DNA of 63,294 nucleotides, filler included, from Folioceros fuciformis (lineage: Eukaryota): assembly GCA_049999805.1 (NCBI GenBank). It is 9 parts of 9 records of this genome, joined end to end, with 100 filler letters (N's around TTAATTAATTAA, not from the genome) between each part and the next. Parts side by side here need not be neighbours in the genome. Positions count along the whole stretch, not along the records: positions 44,179 to 55,677 come from JBNGIO010005786.1; 8 more parts are not named here. One strand, given 5' to 3'. The notes below the pieces were generated by a model. The model was not told the DNA's origin. It worked only from the letters and a program-made list of their open reading frames with translations, and ran no database searches. The position numbers and the translations under genes are program-made. Every line of letters begins with the position of its first letter. Positions within the stretch are counted from its first letter, which is position 1. Shown one piece after another: positions 30,778-60,726 of the stretch.

Positions 30778-32986
30778 AACTGTCGCAGCCCTTGTGTTGC
30801 TTGTTCATGGTTTGATCTTTCTGCTTGCTTTCAGGTGGACCAAGGGCACGTCAGGCAATGTGGGACAATTTCATTGCTGACAGCACCACTGGCAAGGTAT
30901 GGTGCTCTGGTGGCTAAGGATTAGCTGTTGAATTCGAGAGCACCCAGGCACGGACTGACCCGCACTTGGTGTACTGCAAAACCAGGAGAGCTGCTTGGCT
31001 CGAATCCTGGTCGAACCAGGTGCAGTGCAGATCAGCTGCCCTCAATCGTTCCTTCAGCCAGGGGATCTACTCTCAATCGTTCATTGGCTCGTTCATCCAG
31101 GGTGGGCATCCAGCCAGCACACCACATCCTCCAGCGCCTGAAAAATGATCTCATCACGTTCCCCCTCCTTCGTAGCATGCCTTGCATCCTTATACAAACG
31201 CTACGGCTTGTCAAGGCTGCTGGGCTTCTCCTTCAGCGCCGTGCAGACAGAGGGATGGATCCGTTGCCATGTCCGCCGCCTCGTGCAGCACAAGCAGTCC
31301 ACTCATGGCCGCTGTGGCGCATGAGACGAATAGATCGTTGTTCAGAGGAAAATCCCACAACGGACATCCTCCAGCATCGAAGAAAAAACAGCTCTGGAAC
31401 CTTGACGCCTCCCTTTCACCCGACTGTTCCTTTCACATCATTCGCGATTCCACTTTTTTCACGGGCGTCTCTCAGTTTAGGGGTGATCGATGCAGGCGAC
31501 ACGAAATGCATGATACAGCAAACCCAAATCCCCCGATCTCATGCACCATTGCCCGTCCCTTTCCGTTCCCGTGCAGTGGTGTCTACGTCTTGTCCCATCC
31601 TGTGCCCCTCGCGTCTTCTTCTCCCACACCTTTGAATCAACAATTAGCCCAGAGCTCAAAGCCTTTCTTTAGGGCTTGTTGCCGCTGCATAGGCATTCAT
31701 AGTAAGGTTGTCCATGGGACAATGCTGCATGTTTGTTATGTTTTTGTACCATTTGCATATTACTAGAATATTACTAGTATCCTTCTCCTGTTTCTTTCCT
31801 TCCCCTACTTCCATCAAATTTTACACTTGAACATCTTTGTGTGAGCTAAGAACCTAATCCAAGAGTTTTGTTCTCGCTCAATATTCATAAATTAACACAC
31901 TCTTCACAAAGGTACAGTGANNNNNNNNNNNNNNNNNNNNNNNNNNNNNNNNNNNNNNNNNNNNNNNNNNNNNNNNNNNNNNNNNNNNNNNNNNNNNNNN
32001 NNNNNNNNNNNNNNNNNNNNACTTAGGTGGATTTCTTAAGTAAGTGATTAGTTATTTTCTTAGTTATAGATCACAACAATCTTTCTTATAAAGGTATTTA
32101 CTTTCTACTCTTAATGCACTACACAACACTAGAGCTAGTCTATGATTCTCATCAAATATGACTCTAGGTACTTCTCTAGTGGTTGATTTATTTCTTCTTT
32201 AGTTTCCTTATTGTCTAAGTTTACCATGTTGACATGTTTCCTCTCTAGATTCCTCGTTACCTAGTTCACCACGTTCACATAATCTGAGTTTCCCCATGTT
32301 GAATTGTTTTCCCTTTAACTTCCTTATTATTCAAGTGTGCCATAATCTACATTACTTCTTCTCTATGACTCTTTCAAACCACTCAGCAGCACTTAATTGC
32401 ATTCTCCAATCAATGGGTTTGATATTAGATGTCATTGAGGACCCATTACATAAATTTATGACTTACAAGCAAGAACAACAAACAACTTGTTCTAAGACTA
32501 TTCATTTTTTCAGCTTTTATAGACTACAGAAGTCTAGGTTGCGCTAAGTCTCATTACATTCTTTAAGCCTCACCACTTCTCATTACATTCTTTAAGGCTC
32601 GTCACTTCTCGTTAGGTTCTTTAGGGCTCGCTTCGTTATAGTCTTGCCAAGAGGTTTAAAGTACTACTACTCTTAAATATAGAAACTTCTCTCATATTAC
32701 TTAGAAACATATATTACAAATCCGTCGCACATAATATGAAAGAATAATATTGTACATATTTTTCATGGCATATAAGGATTATGGCTATTGTGTCTAGTAC
32801 AGAATTTTGTACAAGACATTTCTAGTGCAAATATTATCCATGGGTTTGAGGAAGAGTGAAAGTTTAGGGTTTGAGATTACCTCCATCCACAAAATCGGGC
32901 TAGTGAGTAACATAAGAGCTGCAAACCAAAAAATAAAATATATGATGCCCAATGCTGAGTACGTAGATACAATGCCTAGACCTCGG

Positions 32987-33179
32987 TCATCATGTCAAAG
33001 TGATGAGTCACCATCTCAAAGTGATGCATCATCATCTCAAAGTGATGCATCATCATCTCAAAGTGATGCATCATCATCTCAAAGTGATATATCATCATCT
33101 CAAAATGATGAGTCATCATCTCTAAGTATGCATCATTATTTCAAAGTGATACATCATCATCTCAAAATGATGAGTCATC
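32987..33179 (+). repeat. 21-bp minisatellite (TCATCATCTCAAAGTGATGCA)
   Basis: About 9 degenerate copies; reads (SSSQSDA)n in ORF 32807-33271. Confidence 0.92.
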
Positions 33180-33797
33180 CCCAAACTGAGCTTGAAGCTA
33201 TCTCACCATATACCCGTGCTATTCTACTCTACTCCGAAAAGCCTCAATTTTCAATCCCTAGTCTCCAATAGGAGGCCGCCGCGGCGGGTGGCCACTGTGA
33301 CCACGTATCGTCTGGTGTTTTTCTCGTCAAATACAAAAAACAAGTGGGGCCTGCTTTAGAAGCATGCTCTGCAAGAAAACCATTTTGCTTGTTTTCATGT
33401 GGCAGTTCCCTATTGCGACTTGGTTGAAATAACGTTTTACCATGAATGGCACACAATAGATTTTTGAATTGTCGCCATTGTTACTTTTAGCTAAAAGACT
33501 TCTCGAATTATAAGGGAAGAAAACTGCTTTTATTCTATGAACCCTGGATGCTAATGGTGCCCGAAAAGCGGAGCGCCGCACTCGCTTATAAAGCTCAGCA
33601 TTCCTCCCTAAACCAAAATCTCAAAGTGAGGCATTGAAGTTTTCTCAAAGTTTTTGTTATCATACAAGTTTTTAAGTCATAATTAGAGAGAGTGATCTTA
33701 AGTTACGTTAACTAACATGTATGGGTTAATTTTATGTTTCACGTTTTAGCACAAAACATGGCGCAGGCCCAGTTGGTGTCTCCATGTTCCATTGCAT

Positions 33798-34035
33798 TGA
33801 AGTTGTAGCAATTACTAGGATCTCGAATGAACTAGTATCTTCTTGAATGACTGGTGTTGGAACCATGGAATTGAAGTTCTAGCTATTACTAGGATCTCGA
33901 ATGAACTAGTATCTTCTTCAATGACTGGTGTTGGAACCATGGAATTGAAGTTGTAGCTATCACTAGCATCTCCTCAAATGAGCATCTCCTCAAATGAGTT
34001 GGTGTTTCATGAAATTGAAGTTGTAGCAATCACTA
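33798..34035 (+). repeat. ~73-bp tandem repeat
   Basis: The unit TTGAAGTTGTAGC..ACTAGGATCTCGAATGAACTAGTATC..GGAACCATGGAA recurs about 3 times. Confidence 0.88.
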
Positions 34036-34067
34036 ATCTCTCCTTGAATGAGTGGTTTGCATGCTTC

Positions 34068-34810
34068 ATGTTTGACAGTTGTGGAGTTGGAAAGTTGCAC
34101 ACAAGGGACCAGGATTGGCTGCAGCTCGAACATGAAATCCAGGCCGAGGAAGCTTTGCAACAGCAAGGCATTATCTTTCGACAAACATCCTGTACAGTCT
34201 CCTGCAAAGGTGCATTGAAAAGAAAGATTTGGATGTGGGCAGANNNNNNNNNNNNNNNNNNNNNNNNNNNNNNNNNNNNNNNNNNNNNNNNNNNNNNNNN
34301 NNNNNNNNNNNNNNNNNNNNNNNNNNNNNNNNNNNNNNNNNNNTGGGTGGATATGCCCAGTATGAAGATGGTAAAATGGCCATTCAGCTCTTCTATCAAA
34401 TGCGGAGGGAGGGCGTACATCCCAACAAGGTCACATTCGTCTGTTTACTGTCTGCGTACAGTCACAGTGGCCTATGAGAGGAAGGAACCCGCCTCTTTCA
34501 GGCCATGTATGAGCAATACGGTGTGGCTGCTGACATGGACCACTATTTATGCATGACCGACATGTTAGGAGCGTCAGGTCGCCTAGACGAAGCTCACGAC
34601 TTCATCACCAGTCTGCCTGTGCAGGCGGACAGCAGTCTGTGGATGTCTTTGCTGGGAGCGAGCCGGATCCACAGAAACGTGGACATGGGAAAACTCTCAT
34701 AGAGGCCATCTTAAAGCTAGACCCAACCATCGCTGCATCATATGTCATCATGGGAGACAACCATGGTGCTGCTGGCAGGCTGGACGACAAGGCAAGCATA
34801 AGGAAGATGA
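34068..34810 (+). pseudogene. PPR (PLS-E class) pseudogene, paralogue of 47431-48985
   Basis: GGYAQYEDGKMAIQLFYQMRREGVHPNKVTFVCLLSA and DHYLCMTDMLGASGRLDEA..WMSLLGASRIH, with frameshifts; nucleotide match to 47504-47675 and 48356-48822. Confidence 0.9.
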
Positions 34811-34954
34811 GTTTTGCAATGGCATTGTTTTTGGCATTGAGGTCATGCTATTGCAGCAACTCCTCCTTGACTGTGTAGCCAAGAGACTGCCGGGAGCCGC
34901 ACCGTTTGGACAGAGAATGTTTGAACCTTCTCATGCATTATAGTTTGATCAGTC

Positions 34955-35779
34955 TTACCATGACCCCATGAACGTCTGGCACACTGAAAAGTTCCGCATC
35001 ACTTCCAGAATCACCACATACGAGGGGATTGTAATCCGTAGAGAAATTCCCTCCGCCTCGTACCTGCGCACAAGGTAAGCCAGGGCCTCTCCTTTCACCG
35101 CTGCTGCTGGCAACACTTCCAGATTAGCGCGCCCACTGTAGACGATTTTAGCTTCCAGCTGTTCACAATCGCACATGCTTCAAGGTTAGAAGCCAACCTC
35201 CGCAAAGCACAGAAGGAAGGCAGCAAAGGCCCGTACGGAGCCTCGTTTTGGTTGTGATTCGGAACCTGGGTAAGCATCTTAAAGAGGACTTCAACATCCA
35301 CTCCTCCATAACAGATCAAAGCCCCTAAGCAACACACCTGAATGTTCAGCTGGGAGTACTTTTCCGCCGCTTCCACCACAACACTCCCAGCCCGCCCTCC
35401 AGTGAGCACCTCCTCGTAAGCAGACTCAGGAGTCGTGGCCTCCCCGTCCATGATTTCAGTCCCAACCAGCATTCACAACGTGTGGTGTAGCCAAGGGCTG
35501 AGGTGAGGTCCTAGCACAACATCGGAGACCTTCCGATGGAAAACACCAGGGAAAGCGCGGAGTCAGGATTGGACTGCGTTTGCTAGGGCGCATTGAACAT
35601 AAGTACCCAGGTCTGATCCTCATCATGATGATCACCTGCAACAGCAATTTAAGCGTTCCACACCTGCCACTCTTGATGCCAGACTCCACAACAAAATCAC
35701 ACATCCAAGTCCAAAGCCGCTTGGTGTGATCAAGCTCCGGGACGATCATGAGTCGTGGAGTTGAACTTAGCCGCGGCAT
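34955..35779 (-). pseudogene. SPP: Sucrose-phosphate phosphatase (HAD family) pseudogene
   Basis: MPRLSSTPRLMIVPELDHT (cf. plant SPP PRLMIVSDLDHT), [40 protein letters not shown] and a shifted [20 protein letters not shown]; it has stops, frameshifts and remnant introns. Confidence 0.88.
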
Positions 35780-38700
35780 TCTGCAGCCGTCGTAGAAAGA
35801 AATCGATTTTCACAACTTTGCTCGGCAGCAGCTGCCGGCAGGAACAGAACAGGAAACTAGAGGAAATCTCCGTCGTGCTCGCGCAAAGCACTACTGCTGA
35901 GCTCAGTCGATTCCAGAGGTTTCACAGGTGACGCCCTACTTTCGTCATTTGTTGGACAGGCCACGACGGGAGTCTAAAGTCAACATCTGCCTGTCCCCCA
36001 CTCGCCGATGCTTAGGAATGCTCAATTAGGGGTAGGCTCAGAGAGTGCCTATTATTTCCACCTGTTACTTACTTGTCCCAGGAGCAAAGTGTAGGCAAAT
36101 GCTGGGATGAGTGGTAGTCGATTGTGTGCTGCTTCCTCGTACACTGTACAGCAGTTACTGTTCTTGTGGCAGGACGAGAGCGAAGCGATGCAGGGCACAA
36201 ATCTTGAGGTCCGTGTGTGGGCGCGAGTGAGAGATTCTGATGGACTGGGTAATTTCCTGCTCTCTAAACGCACAAGCGACAAATGCATTCTTGCTTTGAG
36301 TGACAGCAGCCTGTGGTGACTGCATTCCTGAGCCACGAACGCAGACACTGGTGAGGAGAGATTTGCTTGCAGGGCTAAATCAATGCGAAACAAGGTGAGT
36401 ATGTGCACCCTATACTTTTCTTCCACAGCAGGATGCGAGTGTTCCAAGAGAACATGTCGGGCAAGCACAGCCTGTTGCAGGAGGCGAAACCTTCAGTCTC
36501 CGATGTGGCAAGGCGGTTCAGGTTCAAGTCGTAGGCAGAGCTTTTGTGGTTCCCGTTGGTTTGGAAAGAGTGTGGGACAGATTACTCTGGAGGTGTGGGA
36601 TGGATTCCGGACACGTGTAGAAGCACCTGATGTCCGTCTGTGGCTCACCCTGATTTCCACAGCTGAGCCAGAACTCACTCTTCGTGTCTGTGCATTCGCA
36701 TGCACACACACGAAGAGGAACTATGCAGACTGTGGTGCATGCTCGAGAATTCGAAGCTGCAGGGTGCCCNNNNNNNNNNNNNNNNNNNNNNNNNNNNNNN
36801 NNNNNNNNNNNNNTTAATTAATTAANNNNNNNNNNNNNNNNNNNNNNNNNNNNNNNNNNNNNNNNNNNNACAGTCTCAATGGAGACCGATGAGCTTACAG
36901 AGGGCAGCACGATTTGAAAATTTGCATTTTGTGTAGATGAAACCGTAGACTGACTATGAGAATCTGACACAGCATCTTTCCCTGACGCTGACGCAATCAT
37001 GGCTCGGCGGAAGAGGACTCAAGTTGCTTGCGGGAAAAGTCAGACGACGACACGACGGGTGGCCAGTGTGATAGGCTGGCACTTGCTTTCAGCATTTTGA
37101 CCCGGTGCCATAGAAACAGGAGAACGAAGAAAAGATAGGTACGTTGTTTAGTCTTCCATAGGCTAGCCACCACAGAACAAGTATGCCCCGGTAGCATGAA
37201 ACAGGATGCAGACAGTCGTACCAATAAGCTGGATGCCGGCGGCAGGACCCAGGGGGTGGACGAATTTGGGACACAGTCGATTCCGAGCCCTGCGCCCTCA
37301 CCCTTCGGGAACTCCATAGAAGAGGAGAAGGAAAATGCGGAAAAGCTCTGGCGTGTGCTTTTCGAACCTGTCGCGGTAGTGGGACGATAGGTCTAGGAAG
37401 AGGTATCCCAGTGACCCTAACTTTGTGAAGAAAGGGACGAGAGAACAATTGTGGGCTGAGAGCTCAACTACTCCTACCTGGGTGAAAGGGGAGCTTGCTC
37501 AGTTCCGCCACCGAGCAGGCCGCCTCCTAGAGGTTATGGGAATCAGGGTGGATACGGGAACCAGGGGGGCTATGGTAATCCAGGATATAGATCGCCAAAC
37601 CAGGGATTCTCACAAGCCGGTGGAGTGGGGAATGCAGGTAATGGTTCCCAGTGGAGTAGCAGCTCGGGGGTTACAGCGAGAGAGTCCAACCTACTGTGTC
37701 GCTAGGTGGAAGAGGAAGGCCTGCGGTACCTCCAGAGGAACAAGCAAGACGGGACGAGTTGGCAAGACAGATTCTTGCAGGGGAGTTCGGTAAGAGCAGA
37801 GTTGTGTAGCCTTCTGCTCCCCAGGGAACCAATCTTGAAGCGGGGGCCAAGCTTTCTGTCGATGAAGGAGGGGAATATCAAGCCCGATGTGAGCAACAAT
37901 TTTCCAAAGCCACCGAGTGTGTTGGATTCTGCAGGGAAAAGGACGTGAAGGTTGTCCTTCTGACCTGCCCACCGAAGCGTCCCCAATAGAGTTGGGTAGT
38001 TAGGATAGACGTGGTAGGAGGGGTGGTTTAAGCGTTTAAAGACACTGTTTAATACGCTTAAGCACTGTAGCAGGTGAGGGACCATCAATGGCTGCCTACC
38101 CGATCAACCACCCCAACCGACAGTAGCCAGGAACTCTATAAGAGTCATAGGGCTCAAGAGATAAAGTGGTCGGTCTTTGTTTCTTACCAAGCCTGAACAC
38201 ACTTGTTCGTGTTCCAACAAGTGCGCTCCTGCCGGCTGCGTCGTCTACAGTGCCTGGTAGCTTGGTGGGGATCGTGACGGCCCAGACGCCTGGGTGTGAG
38301 GTGCCGTGTTTCGCACGCACACTCGTGGGTGTCCTACCGGAGTGAGTCGCCGACAGCAGAGGCGTGTTTAGCAGGCAGGAGGTGTATTCAGGTTCGCGAG
38401 GGTCGTGGTAGAAGAGAGGTTTGAATAGAGTCGCACACACACAACTGGGACAGGCCCTCCTTCGAGGGAACGAAACCTGCTAGACTACACGACAGCGGGA
38501 TAGGTGTGGCCGCTAGAGGAAAGCCCCTGGGTGTCCCCGGATTCTTTCCGCCACAACTTACTATAAAAGCTGACCACATGGCGCTGATACTCGCGGCAGT
38601 GCTCTATCCTCACTCGCATCATCTTCAGATGGGTGTAAGGGCACTTATACCACAAAGGGCTACAAGGAATAGCAAAAGAACCAAGGCTCACAATCTTGGT

Positions 38701-43230: not shown

Positions 43231-44178
43231 CTGCATCACCCACCTAGCTAGCACTACTTCTAATCCATAGCAGCACCAGCAGAAACAGAGCGGCCTGCAC
43301 CAGCTCGCCCTCGGCCATCTCTCAAACCTACAAAAGGATTCAAGCATACTGTGAAGTTACTAGAGAGTAAAAGCACACGTAATACTTGTGTGATCCTCCA
43401 AAGTTTGGGGTAGTAGTTTGTTTTGGTTGAAAAAGGGTTAATAGTGGTATGGTTTGGTTTTCTTTTTCTACTTATTTTCCCTAATTTTCCTTTATTTTCT
43501 GGTCATTTTTCCTATTTTTCTTTGTGCTAATTAGGTTAATTGACTAGGAAATAGTTGGTTTCGTTATAAGAGTGGGTATAGGTTTGGTCCCAGACGTGGG
43601 AAGGTTTAGGTTCGGTACCAGGCCATAGGGTTGGGTAATTAGTTTAATATTAATTAAAGGTATACAATATTAAATGATTAAATAATAAAATAAAATAATA
43701 AAATAAAATAATGGTTTGAACATAGGAACGGGTATCTGGGTATGTCAGTGTCAAGGGTCAAGGTCTGACGATAGGCTGGCTGATTGCTTGGCTGGCATAA
43801 AAGGCCATGGAGGCCATGCCCTAGCAAGAGCTAGAGGCAGGGGTTGCGGCCGCCCCCATCCCTTTTCCCCCTTTCTCCCTTCCTCCTCCATTCCCTTCTT
43901 GCCCCCTTCCTCTTCTTCCTCCCTTCTCAATCTTCCCTCCCTGTTTCTTCTTTGAATCTAGATTGCAGGCAAGAGGAGGGATCGACGAGTGATGGGAGCG
44001 AGTGTGTGCAGGAGAGGAGGCTAAGGCGAGCTGCAGGATCCGGTTGATTCCCGGCCAGGCCTGCTTTCTTCTTCTTTCNNNNNNNNNNNNNNNNNNNNNN
44101 NNNNNNNNNNNNNNNNNNNNNNTTAATTAATTAANNNNNNNNNNNNNNNNNNNNNNNNNNNNNNNNNNNNNNNNNNNN

Positions 44179-47146
44179 CTAAGGTACTGGCTAACCGAAT
44201 TACTCCCTTTCTTGATGATTGGATTAAGAAAGAACAGCAAGGGGTTATTCAAAACAGGTGCATCTTGGACAACCTTTTACTCTTGCGGGAAGCAAAATAC
44301 AACACTCAGGCACAGAAGAAAGCCGTCGTCTTCATTTCCCTTGACTTTTACAAGGCCTATGATTTTGTTGAATGGCATTTCCTGTGGCGATGTTTGCGTA
44401 GTTTCGGGTTTGGGAACAATTTCTGCAAATGGACTGCCATTTTGTGTGAAGACGCAGGAGCCAAGGTGGCTGTAAATGGGTCCTTTACGGAACATTTTGA
44501 CATCTCTTGGTCGGTACATCAGGGTTGCCCCCTTGCTCCGTTCTTATTTATTATCGTCACTGACTTCTTTCTCAGAGCAGTCAAGCAAGATCCGGCAGTG
44601 GTGGGAATTCAAAACCCAAATGGAACGCAGTTGAGGGTCTCTGCATTTGTAGATTATACTCTACTCTTTTCTTCGGCTGAGAAGGCCTCATTGAAAGCGC
44701 TGCTCCAACAAGTCAAGGTCTTTGGCGAATTATCTGGTTGTAAGGTGAATTGGAGTAAGACGCGCATGATGTGTCTCCACTTGGATGGGGGGCTTACCCA
44801 ATGCATCAACCACATCAGGCGAGTGACTCCGGGTTTGACGCACAAGTATTTGGGGCTTCCATTTCAAGAGGAGGATGAGAATGGGGAGATTGGGAAGTAT
44901 GTTTGCCTCAGGGTCGTTCGCAAAGCGGCTAGTCTTCAGCTGCTTGAGCTCAATCTGGCAGGTAGGTTGGTAGTGATTAATCATATCCTTACTGCCTCTT
45001 TATGGTATTATCTGTTCTTATGGGCCCCTTCCAAGTTAGAGGTGAAACGCTTACAACAGGTGCTGACCTCCTTTCTGTGGAAACACTCGAGGAATAGCAT
45101 GGCCGGGTGTTCTAAAGTGGCTTGGCAGCATATTATTTAGGCACGTGGGTTGGGGGGTCTTGGGGTGGTGGATCCGGTCCCCAAGATGAAAGTGTTGCAT
45201 GCCCAGTGGGTTGTCAGGGCAGCCGATCCGGCGTCCTATACTTGGAAGAGCCTTCTAACTCAACATCTGGACTGCACCCAAGCTGTCCCCCGGGGAAGAA
45301 GATCTATCGACAACATTCTGGCCGACAAACCGATTCTCAATATTGCTGGATGCTCCCCACTCTTCAAGTCCCTCTAGAGCAGCTACTTGGAGGTTAACCG
45401 ATACCTTACTCTGCGAATGATGTTCTTGGTATTCCTTTGCAGGGTCTCGAGGTTGTGGGTGCAGGAATTCAGGTCAAGGGTATATCGGTCACAAATTTTT
45501 GGGTTGGCCTACCGGAGAGGCGTGATCCAACTTGGCCATCTATGGAATAGATCTGAGTCTCGGTGGAAGGAGATAGAGGAGGTCAAAGGGGAGTTTGGTC
45601 TAGGGACCCGGCAGGTCAGACTCATCTTTTCGTGGTTGCACGAGGGTTTGGAGGAAAAGGTGCAACAGGTCTTAAGGCGACAACCAGTCTTGGGAGGGGA
45701 TGGGTGGTATGTGTACCCCATGGATAGTAGTGGAGCCGACTTGGAGGAGGAAGATGACCAGGCGGAAGACTTAGAACTAGATAAGGCAATCTGGCTTGCC
45801 AGATCGGATGGCAATGAGACGCTGAAGTCGTTCAAGGTCGTGTTACCGGATGGACTTTTGGAAGAGCAGGGCAGGGAGGACGGGGTAGCCTGAGGAGGGG
45901 ATTTTCGGGCTATGACTGTCCTCGTCAAGTCCTTTCGGGTAGGGCGATGGTGCAGCACAGGTGAACTCCCAAGTGGGCCGAAAGTCTTCGACAAAGCAAA
46001 GGTCCAACACTAGTTTCGACTTTGCGAGAATTGGGCCCTGACCCTCAGACCAAATCTCTAAAAGTGGCCCAGACGACCGGGATGCAAGAAGGCTACCCCT
46101 CGGTCCTTCTTCAATTTCCCGACGGCGGACCTGTTTCTCTGGTTGGTGCGCGTGCAGAAAATCATTCGAAGACAACCAATGGCCCCCCGATTGCAATTAG
46201 CTGGACAGCGTCAAAGGGAAGCCATCAAAATTCTTTGGAAGTCCGCTGGTATCCCTCCCAAGGTGAGATATACGGTNNNNNNNNNNNNNNNNNNNNNNNN
46301 NNNNNNNNNNNNNNNNNNNNNNNNNNNNNNNNNNNNNNNNNNNNNNNNNNNNNNNNNNNNNNNNNNNNNNNNNNNNCCAAGGTGAGATATACGGTTTGGT
46401 GTTTTTTTCAAGCGTGTTTGCCTAATGCGGATTGGTGGGATGGCCTTTTAGCCGCAACGGGGGAGGATGTGTGTCGATTGTGCACCGCTGGGGCCTCGAA
46501 CAAGAGCCAACATATGTTCTATCATTGCAACTTTGCCCAAGAGATCTGGAGAGAGGTTGGCATGTGGCTCTGTTTGATTTTTCCTAGCGCAAACCTCAGG
46601 ATAACGGCACAATCAGTCTTATTTGGGCTGGACGCATCCTCATGCAAACCTCTCCTTAAAACATAGTGGTGGGGATTACTGTGGTTGTCTTGCATTTTCC
46701 ATCTATGGGTCAACTAGTCCGCAGTGGTTTATGGAGGAAAGGACTCAGCCTCTGCGAAAACTTTGTTGTGGCGCATATGGGAGCATTTGTTGACTGCAGC
46801 AGAAGCGTTGGAGCAATCTCGTCGGAAGTGGTTTCAGCGAAAAGATTGGAGGATGGCGGGTTTCCTAGCACCGGGGAAGGTACACGCTGGAATACTTGTG
46901 CCCCTGGGCACGATGAGCCTCAAAGGCCGGGGGAGACCCCAAAGGGTGAGTATAAATGGCTTAGGCAGTTTGAGGGCACCATAGTGTAGGGGAGTGCTCC
47001 TTGAGCGGCTTGTCCTGAGTTTTGGACTCAAAGACCTTTTTTTCTCCCCCTCTTCTCTGGTGCCTGCGCTTGTACATACGTTTGAAGGTCCCCATAGTGG
47101 TGGGCCTCTGCCAATGAATCAGATGTTTTTTCGCGATAAAAAAACA
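44179..47146 (+). mobile_element. L1-clade LINE ORF2 (RT + zf-RVT), degenerate, with A-rich 3' end
   Basis: LDFYKAYDFVEW, VHQGCPLAPFLF, KYLGLP, KVAW, GGLGV and CRLC..HMFYHC..AQEIW; ends in TTTTTTCGCGATAAAAAAAC. Confidence 0.92.
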
Positions 47147-47430
47147 AACTTCCTTCCCCGAACCAGTCCTTGGTTATGCAAAACTGCGCAAGCTGGCCAT
47201 CTGCCTCTTCCTACTTAAACGTGCAATAGTAGCTGTATTCGAAGAATTGACCCTGCGGATACGTCACTGACAGGCAGTATCAGAACTCTTCAGCCATTTC
47301 CAACACAGAGCAAAGGGGTGGCTATGGAATAGCAGAAAAGCAGTTAGTGGTCAGCAAAGGGCAGCATCAGGAGTTGCCCAAGGAGCAATTGGTTTGTGGC
47401 AAGTAACTCCTCTTCCTTACCTTCCTGGAT

Positions 47431-48985
47431 GTGCATCTTCCTGTGTGCTCATATACTGAACAGGGCCCCACCTTCTGCATGCAATGTTGCAGATTGGGAC
47501 GAGATGACAGTTGTCGAGTTGGAAAGTTGCATGCAAGGGACCAGGACGAGCTACAGCTCGAACATGAATTGCAGGCTGTGGAAGCTTTGCAACAGCAAGG
47601 CATTCGTCTTTTGACAAACATCCTGTACAGTCTCCTGCAAAGGTGCATTGAAAAGATAGATTTGGATGTGGGCAGACGAGTTCACTCCGTTATTATCAGA
47701 AGTGGATGTCAGTCCAACGCGTTTCTTGGAAACCACCTGATCCGGATGTATGCTGCTTGCGGGAGTTTGGCGGAAGCTAAGGAAGTGTTCAGCAGACTGC
47801 ATGCTCCGAATGTGTTTGTTTGGGAGTCAATGATATCAATGATACCCTTTCCAACATTCTGAAAGCATGCTCTAGTGTGGCAGCACTTGACGAAGGCAGG
47901 GCAATACGTGCTCGCATCGTGGAAATCAGCTACGACTCTAACTTGTATATCGGAAGCAGTCATTGATATGTATGTCAAGTGCGGGAGCTTGTGTAATGCA
48001 CGCAGGGTGTTGGATAGAATGCCAAAACGTGACAGGGTGGTATGGACTGCCATGCTTGCAAGATATGCACAACATGGAGATGGTAATGAAGCATTCCGGC
48101 TTTTGCAGCAGATGCAATCAAAGGGAATGCGTCCCGACAAGGTGACGATGCTGAGCATCCTCAAAGCATGTTCCACCATAGCTGCTCTGAAGCAGGGTCG
48201 ACAGCTTGATGCACATACCGTGGAGACTGGCCTTGACACAGATGTGTCTATGGGCAACACTCTGATTGACATGTATGGAAAATGTGGGAGTTTGGAAGAT
48301 GCAAGAACCGTGTTCCAAGGACTGGCAGAGAAGGATCTGGTGTCTTGGAATGCGATGGGTGGATATTCCTAGTATGGAGGTGGTGAGATGGCCCTTCAGC
48401 TCTTCTATCAAATGCGGAGAGAGGGCGTACATCCCAACAAGGCCACATTCGTCTGTTTACTCTCTGCCTGCAGTCACAGTGACTTGTTAGAGGAAGGAAC
48501 CCGCCTCGTTCAGGCCAATGAGTATGAGCAATACGATGTGGCTGCTGACATGGACCACTATTTATGCATGATCGACATGTTAGGCCGGTCAGGTCGCCTA
48601 GACGAAGCTGACGACTTGATCACCAGTCTGCCTGTGCAGGCCGACAGCAGCTGGATGTCTCTTCTGGGAGCAAGCCGAATCCACAGAAACTTGGACATAA
48701 GGAGAACTCTCATTTGAGGCTATCTTAAAGCTAGACCCGACCATCGCTGCATCATATGTCATCATGGGAGATATCTATGGCGCTGCTGGCAGGCTGGACG
48801 ACAAGGCAAGCATAAGGAAGATGATGCAGAAAGCGGGTGCAAGAAAGGAACCTGGACGCACATGGATGGAACTTGACAGCCGGGTCCGCACCTTCCTCGT
48901 CGAAGACAAAGAGCATCCTGAAAGGATCTTAAGAAGTCTACACAAATCTCGATGGAATCAATGGGAACATTGCAATCGCAGGCCT
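47431..48985 (+). pseudogene. PPR protein, PLS class with E/E+ domains, pseudogene
   Basis: Repeats NHLIRMYAACGSL, DMYVKCGSL, WTAMLARYAQHG and NTLIDMYGKCGSL; E+ segment KEPGRTWMELDSRVRTFLVEDKEHP; several frameshifts and stops. Confidence 0.93.
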
Positions 48986-49139
48986 GCTGTGATTGCTGCC
49001 CTGTCCCACCCTGTCCCAACAGATCTATGAGGCAGCTTGTCTGTGGATCAGGTAGCATATACTGGATCCTTCCCAAAAAACTTGGCCATAAGGCTAACGG
49101 AGCGAACGTTGGATTACATCTCCTCGTCACGTGGACGGA

Positions 49140-50366
49140 TGTTATTAGACTAAGTTTCTATAGGACATTGACACGATACGCCTATTATCTCGAACTTGGA
49201 CATGATAATGAGACACAATAAGCGAGTTATCGGGCAGATTGAGTCTACTTAGCCGACTTCACGACCGGCTGAGTTGGATTGAGTCGACTCGGCGGGCAGA
49301 ACCAGAGACTTGCGTAGGCGCAGTCCTGGAGCTCGGCGAGAGTTTGAAGAGGAGCCAGGGTGCAACAGTCGCGTCAAAGCCCGCTCGATGGTTTCTCGGA
49401 AGAGCAAGGACAACGACAATGGGGCTGCACAACTAGCACGATGGCTGGCGAAGTCACCGTGGGTGAAGACAGGGAGGGCATAGTCCGTATGCTAGCTGTT
49501 CTTGTTTTGGGGAACCTCCCAAAAGTAGACCTCGGGCCTGAGGCTCATCATTTCGGCACAGCAACAAGTCTTGATACATGGTACTCATCGCTGGCTGCAG
49601 GGCATGGCATCAATCCTCTAGTCCCCACAATTTAAATGCGTACATGCCCACCAGGCTGGTGCCATATGTCATTGAGGCAGCAGCGTCCTCACCTGTTTAA
49701 TGCACTCACAGCTTAGAACGAAAAACGGACTGTTCCTCTTTCGCCTATGCAAGCAATCTGACTTTTTCTCCCCGCAACAGGCATGATGCAGTATGTGTAT
49801 CCGAGGTACAGTGTAATGGTCGATTTGAAGGAACCCAAAAGGGCATTCTCATTCAACGCGCTTGGTCCAGACTAACCGCGTTTTTCTCCTGATGAGGCCA
49901 AAGGAAGGGAGCTTAGGTGCTGGGTCCTAAAGCTGATTTTTCATTCAAAATGAATTCACGAAATTTGGCCCTTCGTGCTTGGTCTGGACAAACCGCGTTT
50001 CCCCCTGATGTGAGTCCGAAGGACGGGTCGTGCCGATGACTGGGCTAGGAACCTTGCTGACCAGTGAGCTGAGCTGAGCTCAGTTGGGTCCTAGCGCCTA
50101 GATACCTGCTGTACTGTCATGAACCGGATTTCGTTGAGCAACGAACAGACACGGGAACGTACTTGCATTAGGAATCAGTCCCCCTGCTAGCCACGAAGCC
50201 GGGCATAAAAGGTCGAGCTTGCGGAGTACATGCCACATATTGCGGTGATAACCTCACCGTGATTGTGGCTTAGAGCGGTTTATCTGCCTGAGACTACTAT
50301 CGCCATGATCGCCGTGATCATGGCTTACAGCGGGTTATCTGCCTCTAATGCCATTTGCCCGCGACA
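49140..50366 (-). repeat. Probable 3' LTR of the chromoviral Gypsy
   Basis: On the minus strand it begins TGTCGCGGG right after the chromodomain and a short purine run. The far end (TGTTA at 49140 on +) is tentative. Confidence 0.4.
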
Positions 50367-52440
50367 ACTTCCCGGGGGAGAAGAGGCTGCGTCCTCGAAG
50401 CCGGGAAGACAGAGGTAGTGAGCACGAGCATAGGCGCGAATAAAGTCAAGGGAGCGAGAAAGATTGGGAAGGGATTCCCATGAGGCATCGCTAATAGGGA
50501 AACGTTTCCGAAGCACTAGGAACTCATACCGATGGCGAATACGGCGATGACGGATGAGGCTCTCTACTTCGTATGTGGGGCCATCATGACAAGTATCTAC
50601 CGGGGCCGGGACAGCACGTGGGTGGCCACGATACAATTTGAGCAGGGAAACATGAAAGAGAGGATGAACACGAGATTCGGGAGGAAGGGCATTAGGCAAC
50701 AAGGCCAATGCGCCTGAGGATACGGTAAGGACCAATAAAGCGAGGGAAGATCTTTCGAATGCTCGATAGGGACAGATTCCGGGTAGACAAGCAAACCATA
50801 GGTACCTACCGTAAATCCTGAGGGCGCCGACGCTGATTGGCATATTGGGCTTGGCGATTCTGGGCCTCATGAGTGAACTGGCAAGCCTGCTGTTGGACTT
50901 GAGTACGCTGGTGGTATCAGAGCAAGCGGCATTAGAGGCAGATAACCTGCTGTAAGCCATGATCACGGTGAACTGCCTGCCAGAAATGGGATGTAAATCT
51001 AGAGTCACGGTCGCTCACAAGGGAGCGAGGCAAGCCATGGGCACGATAAACCACCTTCAAGAATAGATCAGTAGTCTGTTCAGCAGAGCATGTCTCCGTA
51101 GTCGGGGCAAGAAGCACTTGATGGGTGAGTTTATCCGTGAAGACCAGCAACGTATCAAAGCCGGTATTGGTGCGAGGCAGGCCAGTTACAAAGTCAAGGT
51201 AACAGGCAAGGGTTGGAGCAAGCCGGCAGGTCGTTGGTAAGAGGCTTTGTTGTGCTGACATAAGTCGCAGAGAAGAACATAGTCTCGAACATCCTGATTG
51301 AGCTAAGGCCAAAAATAATGCCGACTGAGGGTGGTGGTAGTACGATTTACACCCTAATGACCTGCAGATGGGGCATCGTGGGCCTCGGAAAGCAAAACCC
51401 TGCGGATATGGGGAACCTGTGGGATGAAGAGCCGGTGACGATACCATAGCAAGCCATCCTCTGCTCAGTCCAGTCAGTGGAACCATCTCGAAGAGCCTGA
51501 AAGGCACATTTAGCATCCGCATCCTGTAGAAGGGCCCTGGCAATTTCATCCCGCCAATCGGATTGAATCCGTAAGTCCGACAGTGCGTTGGTTGAACCCT
51601 ACTCAAAGCATCAGCAACTTGGTTATGATGGCCTTTGATGGACCGGATCTTGTACTGGTATTGCTGGAGCAACTCAAGCCATCAGGCTTGCTTGCGAGAG
51701 AGAGTGGTCTGTGTCTGGAGATAAATAAGAGGGCAATGGTCTGTCTCAAGTTCGAAAGGGGCGCCCTCTAAAAAACAACGCCATGTCTTTAATGCCAGGA
51801 TCTGAGCCAAGGTCTCCTTCTCGCTGGTTGTCCAGTTCAAATCGGCACCCTTCAACTTTCGCGAGAAGTACGCAATCAGTTGGTGGCCTTGGCCATAACG
51901 GCAAGGTCGGAGGCATCGGCTGTAACAATAAAAGGTAAGGCTGGGTTTGGGTATGCCAACACAGGGGCAGTCACCAAAGCAGTCTGGATAGCACGAAAAG
52001 CGTTGTCTTGAGCAGCACCCCAAGTCCAAACTTGGCCGCATTGAAGTAATTGCGTGAGTGGGCCAGCTATATGAGAAAATCGTGAAACAAACTTACGGTA
52101 ATATGATGCAAGGCTGAGGAAGCTCTGTACATCGTGTGCTTGCCGAGGGATCAGCCAGTCCTTAACGACTTGAATCTTGGCGGGGTCTACACGAATACCC
52201 TCAGCATCAATAATATGCCCTAAGTATTCCAGGCGCTTCTGCAAGAACTCACACTTCGGAGCTTGGACATAGAGATGATGAGCCCACAATCGTCATAACG
52301 CCTCTCTCAAGCGTCAATCATGTTCCTCACGGGTAGCCCCATACACCAGGATGTCATCGAGGTACACAAGCACCCCTTGATTAATCATGCCATAAAATAC
52401 TTTGTTCATTAGGGTTTGGAACGATGCTGGCGCGTTACAA
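50367..52440 (-). mobile_element. Ty3/Gypsy chromovirus pol (RT-RH-INT-chromodomain) with internal deletions
   Basis: KCEFLQKRLEYLGH, FIVTADASD, AYFSRKL..ETDH, DFVTGLP, SDRDSRF, VHPLFHVSLLK and chromodomain YEVESLIRHR..EFLV..DASWES. Confidence 0.93.
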
Positions 52441-52535
52441 CTGGCTACATACCTGAAGGGGGCGGCCCTATTGTGGTGGGTGCACTTGCTTCAGTCGATT
52501 TCGCAAGGGGCGGCCACAGCGCCTCGGAGCTAGTA
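52441..52535 (+). mobile_element. Gypsy gag fragment in opposite orientation to the adjacent pol
   Basis: Translates LATYLKGAALLWWVHL, a retrotransposon gag motif. Confidence 0.55.
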
Positions 52536-52873
52536 ACGCTACAAACGTTGTAGCCAGACGGTTTGTCGTCCAGGCTTCTTTCCAAGATTCCAGGTAAGTT
52601 ACCTTGTGAGGCCTGTGACATTTCGTTAGTAATATATGCTCTCTTTGGCTTTCATGACATGGCCAATGGTTGTGCGTTACAGGTTAAGTTACGACAAATC
52701 TTGTTTAATGGACCCTAGGGTATGCAGTGTCATCCATATAGCATTGCATATACGTAATTTTGGACGTATTTTTNNNNNNNNNNNNNNNNNNNNNNNNNNN
52801 NNNNNNNNNNNNNNNNNNNNNNNNNNNNNNNNNNNNNNNNNNNNNNNNNNNNNNNNNNNNNNNNNNNNNNNNN

Positions 52874-53580
52874 ATCCAAAGTCAGTCACAGGGACCGCCT
52901 CTAATGAAGTCAGGGAAGGAACCGTCATATCCAAACAAAAGGGTGAAAGCATGTCACGGGCAAGGTCTTGCAATGATATGATAGTCAGTATAGAAAAAGG
53001 CAGAGATGGAGGATAGCTAGACAGAGGGCAACTCGACGTTCTTCTCCGTGGTCTGCCCTTGAAGTTTGAGATAGTCTGTATGGTGGACGATCTTAAGGAA
53101 GCGAAATCAACATTGGAATCAACATTGGAGCACGTTGTCAGGCATCCTTACTTCGACAAGGACAAACCCTTTCTGTTTTGCGTAAATGCCCATGGTGAGT
53201 CTGAAGATGATGGTAGAGAGTATGTTTGCTTAGGTGAAGTAGACAAGGCATAGAAGCTTTATGTTGAAGAAGTTATTTTGAATTCCATCGTTGAATGCAG
53301 GAATTTGGCAAACAAGCCTAAGGTGGTTGTCATAAATGTTTGTCGAGGCACTAGTAGTCTTGCCAAAAGCGTGAAAGCGCAGCGTTCAGGCACCGCCAGC
53401 CTTGCCACTACTAGCAAAGCCATGGGCTCAGACGTAGAGGAAAGCTAGGGTCCCAGCAAGAGAATTCGACCCGTGTATTATACGAGCAACTTTCTCACCG
53501 TGTACTCCACCAGTCCTGGAGACGAATCTTTGAGAGATGTCAAGAAAGGCCCAAACTTCATCATAGCTTTCATGAACTTC
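52874..53580 (+). pseudogene. Caspase-like (peptidase C14A type) gene, disrupted
   Basis: Removing a 5-bp duplication (ATGAT, 52973-52982) and reading through three TAGs gives SYPNKRV..GLAMIVSIEKGRDGG*LDRGQLDVLLRGLPLKFEIV..FLFCVNAHG..ECRNLANKPKVVVINVCRG..NFLTVYSTSPGDESLRDVKKGPNFI. Confidence 0.85.
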
Positions 53581-53626
53581 ATCATAGCTTTTGTTTTTGT
53601 ATGTTTGCTTAGGTGAAGCAAACAAC

Positions 53627-54086
53627 GGCGAGAAGCTCCGGCAGAGTGTGGTAAGCCACTACTGGTGGGATCATTGTGTACCTCATTGCCCGTGGCTGAG
53701 GCCACCACGTGATCTCATCGTCACTTGCTTAACAGAAAGAGATATGAGTGATGGTCATGGAGATCACCCCTCATGAAGTTAGGATGAGGTCTTCAAGAGT
53801 TCTAACCATTAGGAACCTTCTTTTGTTTATTGAACTTGGCCCACTGCTGGAAGAGTGTCGGATTGATCATGGTGCATGCTAGTCCTTGGGACTGGAAATT
53901 TAATGCCAAAACTACAACAGAAGGGAATAGTAGGATGAGGTTGATTGTGCGAAGCCGTGATGCAAACCAGATTTAGTCCCCACGGCCCGGTGACGGAAAT
54001 GTGTCAGGTACATTTCAAGCCTAGTGAGCTTGCCAGTGCCACACAAGTAAGGCACTAGAAAGCTTGCGCATCTGCCTGGTTTGAAG
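53627..54086. repeat. Dispersed repeat, copy B (copy A at 30378-30777)
   Basis: Direct alignment with transition-type mismatches. Confidence 0.93.
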
Positions 54087-54705
54087 GCATAGGATAGACT
54101 GTTTGTCTAGCATTGCTTGGAGAGGGAATCAATGCGGTGGCAGGCGTATTCGCATGAAGGAGGGCAATTGACCTTCCTTGGATTTTATTATTCCCTCAAC
54201 AATAGCTAGGACTTCCAACAACACCAAGGTGGGTTCTAGGAGCAGAGACAGTATCCCCTCACGGAGTATCCTCTCAAGGCACATGAGCAGCAATAATAAT
54301 TGGAGAAGTTGACCCAGCAAGTAACCATGCTGCTAGCTTCTCGACAAGAATTATCGTAAGAGGTCATAGTATGTGGGAGGGACCTCACAAAATTTGAGGA
54401 AATGAGAAAGGTAGTGGATGGAAAATTATAGGAAGAAGTGTCTCATGAAGGATCTACTTGGCAAGCTGGATGAGCTAAAGGCACAAACTACTAAAGCGAA
54501 CGAGGAACTACCAAAGCATCTTGAAGTGGGTCAGCAAGAGCGAGTAGAGAGGGAACATTTCACCACCCCATTAGAAAACCTCTAGAGCGAGAAAGCAATT
54601 TAGGTAGTTGAGCACAAAGCCAAGATTCATAAGATGCTTGTGGTCTGGGCTAAGGTTTTGTGATGATTAGGTGTTGGTGCTTGGGTGCATGACGAACGCA
54701 AGCTT

Positions 54706-54831
54706 CATGCATATCATAAGGAAAACCTCAACCTCCAACTAAAGGCTCCATGCATATCATAAGGAAAACCTCAACCTCCAACTAAAGGCTCCATGCATAT
54801 CATAAGGAAAACCTCAACCTCCAACTAAAGG
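54706..54831 (+). repeat. 43-bp tandem repeat x~3
   Basis: CATGCATATCATAAGGAAAACCTCAACCTCCAACTAAAGGCTC repeated. Confidence 0.95.
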
Positions 54832-56099
54832 TAGGGATTGCAAACCAAGATGGCTGTGGGACATCTACAAGAGTAGGTGCGAGGGGGGCGATTGGGCTGT
54901 TGACTTGGATGGCATGGATCTGGCACAACATAGTCGTAACCTCCACCTATGCCAACATCTCCTTATCCATCACAAGAAACTAGTGGCATTTGCGAGGCAA
55001 TGGTATCTTGGGCCACATGATGATGATTGCAAGGCCATGGTGGCCATGCCCTTAACATCAAATTTTCAAGAGGATAGCAGCATGGATCTACAAAGTTCGG
55101 ATTGGGAAAGCCATCTTGGACCGAAATGAGCACGCGGCAAGAGGGATGGGGAGGTCACACCTCGAGTAGTATAGGATTTCGAGCTGGGGAAAAGGAACCT
55201 ACCCACGTAGTGAAGCTATCTACGATGGGAGTAGTAGGGAACCTACCTACGCAAGTTGTAGTAGTGTGTGCCAACCTATGGCAATCGTAGCAATGAGCCA
55301 ATTGTAGACAGAAAAAAGTTTAAACATCCCCTCGCCAAGTGTAAGACTCGGTGTTTTCTTTGTTTTTAAACAGGGAGGATGCGAAAGCGGCTTAAGTTGG
55401 GGGTAGGGAGGGGTATATATGCACAAGACCTCCTTGGGTCTTGAAGTTTTGAGATGGATCAATAACTGGACCAGGGGTCAGGTTGGGACAGGTGCTACTT
55501 GGTCCTTGGGTCTTGGTGTTCGGGTGAATTCTGGAGAGTCCAGCAGCTGGGAGTCGGGAGCAACAGGGAGTTTCGACGAGGAGGCCATTGTCAGTAGGAA
55601 GAGGAAGGCAGGGGCCGGGCGGAAGACTCCTACTAAAAGGATGAAGGTCAGTGCGCGTACCACCAGGGTGGCAAGGGNNNNNNNNNNNNNNNNNNNNNNN
55701 NNNNNNNNNNNNNNNNNNNNNTTAATTAATTAANNNNNNNNNNNNNNNNNNNNNNNNNNNNNNNNNNNNNNNNNNNNATCTTCAACACTTCGTCTTAATG
55801 AAGCTTGAGAGCGGCGATGATTCCTTGCCATTTGTGAATTGGGAATCTAGTGTAGAAGAGGAGACTTGCAAAGGATGGCTTGTAGAGAAAACGGTGGAGG
55901 GAAAAGAAGCGTTTAGGGCTCCTTCTCCCCTACTTTCTCGTTTAAATGCCATTTGCTTATACCCCTTTAGATCCCATTCAAGAATTGTTTCTAGCGTTTG
56001 CTTTTTGACTAAACTATCATTCACACATCTAAATGTATGAACTACTCCATGATCTAAACATGATGCCTGGAGACCATGGAGATGGTCCTAGAGCCTAGG

Positions 56100-58602: not shown

Positions 58603-60726
58603 TCCGATTCGAGTCTGGCTTCAAGCAAGGGGGTTACGGTGGCCTGGACAAGGATCGGAGGCGCAAGTTGCTAGAAGAATGTGTACAGGCGTACACATTC
58701 AATTAGTACAGTCGTGCTGCTAGTGGGTGGGAAGCCCAGTGATGGTTATGTTGACAGGAATGGTGGGATGTCATCTCCAGTGCCAAGTGTGGGGGAAAAT
58801 ATTGCACTCGGGGGTGCTGCGAGGTCCACACAAACCCTCTTTGTCGTTATACCATTGGGATTCAATTCCAAGGGAATGATTTGTGTTAAATAATGTAGGT
58901 TGTCTCACAAAGTCAATTACTACCTTAGGTCAGTCTAGCATGGCTACTACTACCACCTGCCCGGCTACCTTGACTTGACCACGACTCCACTACCAGCATC
59001 GCCCCCTCAACTACCTTATCCCCGGGCTACCTTGCGATCGGCCCAGCTGCTCTGTCGCCCCTACGGCTATTACTGCTCTCGGCTACTTCCATTTCCCCCT
59101 TGACAACGGTCGCCCAACTGGCTACCTCAGTGGGGTCCACACACTCTCTCTTTCTCTCTCTAACTCACACTTTCTCTCTTTATCTCTCTCTCTCTGTACT
59201 CCCTCTCTCTACTTACCCCACGGCTTACTTTTCTGGCTTATGCCTCCTTTTGGATGAGATCCACCGCGGATCTCTCTCTCTTACTGGGGATCACCCTTTC
59301 CTCACGGCACACACCCCTCCATCCACTCACGTCTACTCACTGCCCCTCTCAAGGATCAAAGGCACTCAGTTCACACACACACACACAGACACGAACCTAC
59401 ACATACCTACCCGGCTCTCAATCAGTCAGTGCGCCCTCCTCCACTGCCGCATTCTGCTCACAACCCCAGGCCAGACTCCTCACGTCCACTCACGCATCCC
59501 TGTGCTTCAGTCAGATACACACCTATAAACTTCTCTTCACCTCACAGCATCCCGTCACAGCACATAGGCACATCTAGTTCTCGTCACACTCTCGCTCTAT
59601 TTATTCTCTCGTTAGCCGCGACTACACACCCGCGGCGCTCACCCTCACCGCTCCGATTTTACGGTTCCTCAGCTCCACTCTCGACTCACTGCTAACTCAC
59701 ACACAGTCACCCCAATCGTTCAGTTCCACAGTTTCTTCCTCCTGTTATCACCACACCCGCATTCTGCGTCCACTCGCAGCTCTCACTGTGGCAGCCACTC
59801 AGGCCCACCCGCTTGCTTTACCAACACACAATCCTCGACACACTCTCAATTCTTAATCCACTCACGACTTTCGACTTCTCTCACCAGCGCGTCCCTTCTG
59901 GGCCTTCTCTTCTCTCTGAAGTTTGAAGGAATGGTGGGTCACCGAAGGCTAAGGGAAGAGGTATCCACTTCCACTCCGAACTCGCGGATTCGGCCTCCAG
60001 CACCTTTATCACTCCACGCAATCGTCACAGGAATAGCTGGGGAGTTCGTCTCCCACTCGATGAGGTCTCTCCTCTCGATTCGTTCCCGGTTTTCGATTAC
60101 GAAGCATCCACCACATGCACCCACACCTTCAAAACACTACGTGCGCTCGATTGCCTGGACTTCCTGTCCAGCAATAGCCATCACTAGGCTTCCTCAAGGT
60201 CGGAATGTCTGACTGGTTTCTTGCTGATTTTTCCGAGGCCTCAAACTGGCCTCTTGTACACGGTAGTGGCGGTCTTTCCGCCATAAAGTCTGTCAGGAGT
60301 CAGTCAGCGCTCTTAAATTCTGAGCGGCTTAGGTCCAAGCAAAAACAATCTAAAAAAAACTAGTCTGGATTGTAATTACTGTTGCCTTCGTATTTGCCGC
60401 TGGCGCCTTCCTCCTGGCCGTCACGCTCCCCCCCCCTACTGGTCCGCCTTTGGCCCTCCTGCCCCGCCGCTGGTTAAGCAGGTCCTCCCACATGACCTCC
60501 ACCTCACTACTGCTGCTGCTGGCCCTCGCTGGTGGCGGCACAGGTGGGTTCCGTTGCAGGAAATTCCTCTCCTCCCTCTGTTGCCGATTACTGAGGATGA
60601 GGACAGGCTCCCGTTCAACCCACCGCNNNNNNNNNNNNNNNNNNNNNNNNNNNNNNNNNNNNNNNNNNNNTTAATTAATTAANNNNNNNNNNNNNNNNNN
60701 NNNNNNNNNNNNNNNNNNNNNNNNNN

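Follow-up and report, generated by a model that had tools for sequence, protein, structure and literature searches.

A decayed caspase-type pseudogene fragment in Folioceros fuciformis with relatives in a bryophyte protein family

The DNA analyzed here is a stretch of 63,294 nucleotides from Folioceros fuciformis (GCA_049999805.1), referred to below as the window, in which positions 52874-53592 (+ strand) carry a caspase-type Peptidase_C14 domain. This locus, hereafter the relic, is a dead, truncated, frame-shifted and locally rearranged pseudogene fragment that cannot make a protease. We consider it highly probable that the relic is a non-functional, partly rearranged fragment lying in retrotransposon-rich land-plant DNA, and that its parent belonged to a small plant family of caspase-type (MEROPS C14A-like) proteins.

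Reading frames and lesions of the relic

Read-through translation of positions 52876-53613, with stops written as X, gave a sequence of 246 residues (P0002) interrupted by three TAG codons (X47, X126, and X191, at 53014, 53251, and 53446, respectively). The original prediction, made from the DNA alone, described a broken frame with caspase motifs in the correct order and proposed that the repaired protein be scored against Peptidase_C14. The motif order is borne out by the read-through translation and by Pfam, where PF00656 matched residues 41-233 of P0002 with an E-value of 1.3e-12 (48.3 bits, cut-off 21.4), well above anything that chance would give. Translation, Pfam, and PDB matches together delimit the main frame to 52978-53592 (+), which covers the p20 core (large subunit), a linker of ~40 residues and the start of p10 (small subunit) as far as "GPNFIIAF". 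The putative catalytic residues are His106 (CAT, 53191), within "NAHG", and Cys156 (TGT, 53341), within "INVCRG", while Arg43 (AGA, 53002) lies in "GRDGG" and Arg220 (53533) in "SLRDV"; the positions previously given for these four residues and for the three TAGs were all correct.

Sequence comparison of the relic with the PDB returned caspases in the best 60 of 132 matches (E up to 1; best E 0.0018), and these 60 comprise caspase-1, caspase-3, caspase-4, and Dronc. In the resulting alignments the His and the Cys of the relic coincide with the catalytic dyad of caspase-3 and caspase-1, in the order His (xHG) and then Cys (xCxG). Arg43 aligns with the second Arg of "RRTGAEVD" in caspase-1 and Arg220 with the Arg of "SWRN" in caspase-3, in agreement with the earlier proposal that these two residues represent the S1 arginines. 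Asn154 (53335) occupies the position of the caspase Gln (QACRG), and Asn154 and Cys156 align with the Q and C of this motif in caspase-3.

Upstream of the main frame, the frame starting at 52874 reads ..KEPSYPNKRVKACHGQGLAMI followed by a stop. The N-terminal caspase piece in this upstream frame (52874-52981, +; ..SYPNKRVKACHGQGLAMI, then the frameshift stop) fits the family described below in both motif and spacing. The shift is caused by the 5-bp duplication noted in the original prediction, which by direct reading is a tandem ATGAT-ATGAT at 52973-52982 (+), and after which the main frame continues with ..IVSIEKGRDGG, a stop, and LDRGQL. The spacing from Tyr to Gly upstream of the frameshift is the same as in the family members P0026 ("YPNSNVRKGMKRGVAVIISME") and P0041 from Riccia ("YRNLNVRRKKLRGLALVVSME"). 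Since the upstream frame thus keeps both family homology and an identical Tyr-to-Gly spacing, the frameshift is real.

The relic bears further damage. TAG no. 1 (53014-53016, +) lies, according to translation and alignment, inside the conserved R.GG-x-DRG motif, and is followed by a 12-bp in-frame tandem duplication (53105-53129, +; STLE-STLE) detected with Tandem Repeats Finder. TAG no. 2 is located at 53251-53253 (+) and TAG no. 3, seen in the translation, at 53446-53448 (+) in the inter-subunit linker. A 21-bp in-frame tandem duplication (53554-53591, +; NFIIAFM-NFIIAF), found as a Tandem Repeats Finder array and read by eye, marks the end of homology. Similarity to all relatives stops after "GPNFIIAF", at ~53592, and the conserved C-terminal block of the family (..Q.P...S.L.K.L.W) is missing. 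In place of the remaining small subunit stands a 39-bp copy (53599-53637, +; 85% identical) of the internal segment 53220-53258, which has GAG where the internal segment carries TAG no. 2. Given the end of homology at ~53592 and this rearranged copy, the last ~60-70 residues of p10 have been lost. No Pfam family was detected in the six frames of 53600-55677, and hence neither the missing C-terminus nor genes of transposable elements lie downstream. On the 5' side the relic is immediately preceded by a 100-N assembly gap (52774-52873), so that the assembly lacks the gene's 5' end together with any N-terminal domain. The 12-bp and 21-bp duplications, the truncation with its 39-bp copy, the Asn at the Gln position, and this 5' gap were absent from the original prediction.

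The locus consequently has no open reading frame, being interrupted by three TAGs and a +5 frameshift and scrambled at its 3' end, and it does not encode a complete pair of large and small subunits, as the small subunit is truncated. One could still regard it as a live gene in which the stops and the frameshift are sequencing or assembly errors, or fall within unrecognized introns. Consistent with such a gene, the residues that are invariant or nearly invariant in the family are all kept in the covered region of the relic save one, a Gln just before "G.A.I" where 90% of the members have Arg. However, five independent lesions fall within ~720 bp, the C-terminal block is lost and the 3' end scrambled, and TAG no. 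1 and TAG no. 2 are situated in conserved aligned coding columns rather than in introns. We therefore consider a live gene very improbable.

Relatives in bryophytes and their assignment to the caspase type

The relic is not an orphan; judged by sequence similarity, its nearest relatives make up a small family that includes proteins from Marchantia, Riccia, and Nothoceros. A phmmer search of 1.84 billion cluster representatives with the relic yielded 21 proteins at E<=0.001, the best of them 34% identical. About half are ordinary animal caspases (from the mite Oppiella, fish, and a tunicate, together with pangolin caspase-13 and elephant-shrew caspase-10). The rest have the motifs of the relic, namely Y-P/x-N..V..(R)G-x-A-x-I-x-S-(M/I)-E..R-x-G-G..D-R-G-x-L, A-H-G, K-P-K-..-I-N-x-C-R-G, and F-S-T-..-G..S-x-R....G-x-x-F, and the family also has a C-terminal L-x-K-x-L-x-W.

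Two of the named relatives are P0022, the Marchantia polymorpha protein MARPO_0108s0037 (807 aa), which carries the UniProt name "Caspase family p20 domain-containing protein", and P0025, a transcript of the hornwort Nothoceros aenigmaticus (EukProt EP00246_P009471). The 90% cluster of P0022 has nine members, and all seven that are named belong to M. polymorpha, including Mp_6g00860, Mp_6g00900, and MARPO_0052s0114. When the Marchantia caspase domain was used as query, seven of 992 candidates reached E<=0.001, and all seven, P0022 included, are liverwort proteins. Mapa_005981 and Mapa_003498 from M. paleacea are 80% and 55% identical to this domain, and R1sor_005450, R1sor_005452, and R1sor_005733 from Riccia sorocarpa, encoded on a 56-Mb contig, are 46-48% identical; an NB-ARC protein from Riccia, R1sor_014661, shares 33% identity. 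Leaving R1sor_014661 aside, the named bryophyte relatives are intact proteins of 412-1113 residues with ~27-33% identity to the relic, and intact relatives match PF00656 with E-values of 1e-21 to 1e-39. The original prediction had suggested that there may be intact paralogues in the same genome; intact relatives do exist, though they were found in liverworts and a hornwort.

In the liverwort members, one to three alpha/beta-hydrolase-like domains precede the caspase domain. No such hydrolase domain was detected in the window by tblastn, the sequence upstream of 52874 being an assembly gap. P0005, P0025, and P0026 have a different, non-hydrolase architecture with a common N-terminal region (~100-190 residues, ..EAIIRPAC..); the N-terminal ~170 residues of P0005 gave no Pfam match and a low-confidence fold, and could conceivably be a COR-like domain.

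A word-index homologue search with the relic gave none among 690 candidates at E<=0.001, and only four of 8000 scored candidates reached E<=1e-5 when family alignment A2 was used. Pattern scanning of 185,579 prokaryote genomes produced 101 matches and that of viral contigs 78, none of which was confirmed as a relative; the viral result weakly opposes a giant-virus origin. Four short loci (L001-L004), returned when metagenome contigs were searched with alignment A3, fitted generic animal-type caspases at least as well as the family and were dropped. No family member was found in flowering plants, although the searches were limited and absence is not established.

Both the signature motifs and tree grouping, the latter on unstarred branches, place the relic in the bryophyte caspase-type group. 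In a tree of 21 rows the relic fell into a group of 11, alongside the Marchantia domain and the proteins that have its motifs (support 91/88). In a tree of 25 rows it fell into a group of 16 (support 86/92), which also contains all seven named bryophyte rows and eight of the nine unnamed ones, with eight animal-type caspase rows outside. Both trees are unrooted, and with an identity of only ~25-35% between the family and animal caspases they favor neither horizontal transfer nor ancestral retention, the two origins offered in the original prediction. The smaller tree was built without the multi-domain or partial sequences P0007, P0008, P0014, P0019, and P0020, and the larger without P0007, P0008, P0019, P0020, and P0024, with P0036, a cluster mate, standing for P0021.

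Conservation of the active site was examined in 17 aligned family members. The first S1 Arg is present in all 17, whereas the catalytic His (Tyr in P0023), the catalytic Cys (Gly in P0026) and the second S1 Arg (Pro in P0023) are each present in 16. At the position of the caspase Gln, 15 members including the relic have Asn, two have Ile and none has Gln. The S1 pocket of caspase-1 is formed by Arg179, Gln283, and Arg341. With two conserved S1 arginines an acidic P1 residue would be expected, and a basic S1 pocket with a preference for acidic P1 residues is a reasonable inference for the family; Asp specificity in the strict sense is possible but not assured. P0026 and P0023 lack catalytic residues and are probably pseudoproteases.

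The family is a caspase variant in which N-x-C-R replaces Q-A-C-x-G and fusions to hydrolase or NLR proteins occur. Compared with the PDB, a profile of seven members matched caspase-3 and caspase-6 chains best (E 9e-38 to 5e-35, over both p20 and p10), and caspases account for all 60 matches listed. P0005 was modelled with AlphaFold2 from an alignment of 17 sequences, which gave a mean predicted local distance difference test score (pLDDT) of 67. The protease domain reached means of mostly 81-98 in blocks of 10 residues, whereas confidence was low in the inter-subunit linker (310-333) and over the first 170 residues. Foldseek comparison of the model with the PDB placed caspase-7, -3, -6, and -9, Sf-caspase-1, and CED-3 on top, with E-values of 7e-20 to 3e-17 and target template modelling scores of 0.76-0.86. 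An independent wide structural search against representatives with VIA-align ranked caspase-9, caspase-8/-3, Sf-caspase-1, caspase-4, CED-3, and Dronc first (Z 28.5-23.9; 20-29% identity), followed by c-FLIP (Z 22.8; 18%), MALT1 (Z 21.7 and 19.3; 15-17%), Arabidopsis metacaspases 4 and 9 (Z 19.1 and 18.4; 13-14%), Geobacter GSU0716 (Z 17.8; 16%), legumain (Z 17.0; 10%), yeast Yca1 (Z 15.6; 18%), and the Trypanosoma brucei metacaspase MCA2 (4af8; Z 12.9; 14%). By profile and predicted fold, both of which describe the family and not the relic alone, the family stands closer to true caspases than it does to paracaspases or metacaspases, and this favors the previous classification of the relic as caspase-type rather than metacaspase-type.

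PF00656 spans several classes and would equally cover a diverged gene of the metacaspase, paracaspase or bacterial orthocaspase type, and such a gene would agree with the missing Gln of QACxG. The motif of metacaspases is D-x-C-H-S-G, next to an acidic S1 pocket. The relic instead has I-N-V-C-R-G, a form of the N-x-C-R-G motif, and Arg rather than an acidic residue at both S1 positions. In addition, caspases (Z 24-28) score above MALT1 (19-22), metacaspases (13-19), and GSU0716, and the prokaryote and viral pattern matches remained without a confirmed relative. Descent from any of these other C14 classes is thus the least probable of the alternatives weighed here, and can be set aside with near certainty in favor of a caspase-type parent.

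Scaffold context and origin of the fragment

The window contains 33 runs of N. At eight breaks the pattern is 44 N + TTAATTAATTAA + 44 N (16155-16254, 24707-24806, 27084-27183, 29505-29604, 36770-36869, 44079-44178, 55678-55777, and 60627-60726), and these look like a six-frame-stop spacer chaining separate scaffolds. As the window seems to have been chained artificially from small unplaced scaffolds, neighborhood across the TTAATTAATTAA spacers is meaningless. The scaffold of the relic (44179-55677) consists of three contigs separated by 100-N gaps, and the relic itself is located on the contig 52874-55677 (2.8 kb).

Remnants of Ty1/copia and Ty3/gypsy elements dominate the window. On its own scaffold the relic is accompanied by a pentatricopeptide repeat (PPR) gene of the PLS class (47407-49030, +), which has an E motif and is frame-shifted and in four pieces (PPR repeats, E 2.7e-19; E motif of plant editing factors, PF20431, E 2e-10). 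PPR genes of the PLS/E-motif type are a hallmark of land plants. A Ty3/gypsy-type polymerase remnant with reverse transcriptase, RNase H, integrase, and chromodomain (50328-52490, - strand) lies between the PPR gene and the relic. Downstream of the relic, a 336-bp dispersed repeat (53752-54086) is 88% identical to 30445-30777 on a second scaffold (29605-36769). The two scaffolds also share PPR sequence, as segment 47505-47676 is 91% identical to 34073-34243 and segment 48356-48824 is 90% identical to 34344-34810. The two PPR copies (47407-49030 and 34073-34880, ~90% identical) are both broken by frameshifts or a stop, and they may be pseudogenes derived from a segmental duplication which also carried the 336-bp repeat. 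The PPR-bearing second scaffold further contains an open reading frame (~32900-33100) encoding a Ser/Asp/Gln-rich repeat (SSSQSDA repeated), and the non-coding part of the relic contig a 43-bp tandem repeat in three copies (54702-54831; 98% matches).

Whether this DNA is plant DNA at all is a separate question, since the 2.8-kb contig could be a contaminant (animal, protist or other) mis-scaffolded beside plant sequence. The contig is short, with a gap on one side and a spacer on the other, several relatives stem from unnamed records of metagenomes or read assemblies, and the neighbors of the family member P0004 by ESM features are chordate and arthropod caspase clusters (score 0.90). Against this, the named relatives closest to the relic come from liverworts and a hornwort and lie on chromosome-scale plant contigs, and in both trees the relic groups with bryophyte proteins and not with animal caspases. 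The 336-bp repeat and the PPR segments are common to the relic scaffold and the second scaffold, and the GC content (0.472) and CpG observed/expected ratio (0.49) of the relic contig are within the spread of the other contigs, with a similar CpG depletion. The original prediction had relied on the repeat shared with a PPR-bearing scaffold; the repeat is indeed shared, but as an argument it is the weaker one, the PPR sequence of that other scaffold being linked to it only across two 100-N gaps. The PPR/E-motif gene on the relic's own scaffold makes the better case against contamination. Scaffold PPR, shared segments, and base composition together strongly favor a plant origin over contamination, which we regard as improbable.

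A variant of the preferred explanation is that the fragment did not decay in place but was moved, by a transposable element or by a segmental duplication together with the PPR pseudogene. It is cut at both ends and comprises the protease domain only, the gypsy polymerase remnant adjoins it in DNA rich in transposable elements, further copies of the PPR segments and of the 336-bp repeat exist on the second scaffold, and the coding stretch of the fragment runs over ~216 codons without an intron-like interruption. On the other hand, the six frames of the relic contig contain no gag or other transposable-element domains, and no element termini were seen. Furthermore, there is no second caspase copy in the window, as tblastn of family proteins (whole P0005, P0022, P0025, and P0026 matched only 52876-53613) and a self-comparison of the window revealed none, and no caspase accompanies the repeat and the PPR sequence on the second scaffold. 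Although the fragment may have arrived in one duplication with the PPR pseudogene, or been carried by a mobile element, we find this variant unlikely, if somewhat less so than contamination.

Several observations count against a pseudogene of a bryophyte caspase-type family. The terminal branch of the relic is the longest in both trees (2.7-3.0), no starred branch contains it, and P0003, its best single match, falls outside the group in the 25-row tree. Its identity to any relative is only ~27-34%, and eight of the 16 rows in its group (nine of the 17 sequences in alignment A4) are unnamed records. The S1 Gln is Asn or Ile throughout the family, so that an Asp-specific pocket is not assured. 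Finally, the relic contig is tied to the PPR-bearing contig via a 100-N gap alone, and linkage between them rests on scaffolding.

Proposed function, significance and comparison with known systems

Judging from their conserved residues, the intact relatives would be proteases that act through a His/Cys dyad and a basic S1 pocket formed by the two conserved arginines, with activation probably occurring when the disordered inter-subunit linker is cleaved. The parent family may have had a role in immunity or cell death, because its liverwort members are fused to the type of hydrolase that heads bryophyte NLRs. Passages of PMC11218826 describe this alpha/beta-hydrolase domain at the head of bryophyte "Hyd-NLR" receptors, two of which, from Marchantia, caused hypersensitive response-like cell death in Nicotiana benthamiana. 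The NB-ARC protein R1sor_014661 (P0042, 1079 aa) from Riccia has a hydrolase-NB-ARC-LRR architecture and, at its C-terminus, a caspase-like tail. In this tail the S-M-E..R.GG.DR lead-in is retained, while the His-bearing segment is absent and the Cys is replaced by Gly; it has the appearance of a decoy from the caspase-type family integrated into the receptor. A bolder and tentative proposal is that non-seed plants keep working caspases with an Arg/Arg pocket, which would cut after acidic residues and be wired to NLRs, as the liverwort hydrolase fusion and the Riccia NLR decoy might indicate. These would be a plant counterpart of the NLR-caspase axis, lost in seed plants and left only as a relic in the present genome. 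We hold it to be possible, though doubtful.

What accounts for "caspase-like" activity in plant cell death is a matter of long debate. Plants are stated to be without caspases, and to have metacaspases only, in the abstracts of PMC13272413 and PMC12521494 and in the Discussion of PMC10565124. The original prediction took plants to have only metacaspases; these papers agree with it in denying caspases to plants, yet databases already hold the liverwort "Caspase family p20 domain-containing protein". In searches of open-access main texts, no description of caspase-type genes in bryophytes was found. The relic is thus a new, dead member of a family that is known in databases by automatic names and appears undescribed in the literature. 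As a pseudogene the locus is ordinary, and it is the family behind it that is of real interest. The dead locus leads to a caspase-type family that is intact and multi-copy in model bryophytes, among them Marchantia polymorpha, whose easy genetics and biochemistry make the past use of true caspases by plants, their targets and a role with immune receptors testable. A bryophyte family leaves the caspase-like activity of flowering plants unexplained.

Among known systems, MALT1 resembles the family in its caspase-like fold, but shares only 15-17% identity with it and has a different domain context; MALT1 is Arg-specific. Plant metacaspases (C14B; AtMC4 and AtMC9) share with the family the caspase-hemoglobinase fold of clan CD as well as the His/Cys dyad, and differ by their lower structural scores (Z 19.1 and 18.4) and by the Arg which the family has at both S1 positions. 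Metacaspases are the C14 proteases known in plants and cleave after Arg or Lys by means of an acidic S1 pocket. The animal caspases (C14A; caspase-3, -7, -6, and -9, CED-3, and Dronc) are the best sequence and structure matches. They share with the family the order R-x-G, (S/A)HG, KPK..I.xCRG, and ST.xG..S.R..G..F, the His/Cys dyad, both S1 arginines, and the p20-linker-p10 arrangement. They are nevertheless only ~20-35% identical to the family, which has Asn (or Ile) for the S1 Gln and AHG for SHG, and in which no CARD, DED or pyrin prodomain was seen; compared with them, the relic is a broken and truncated pseudogene. The liverwort and Nothoceros proteins have, like the relic, the lead-in Y-x-N..V..(R)G.A.I.S(M/I)E..GR.G and the N-x-C-R motif, and they belong to the same tree group.

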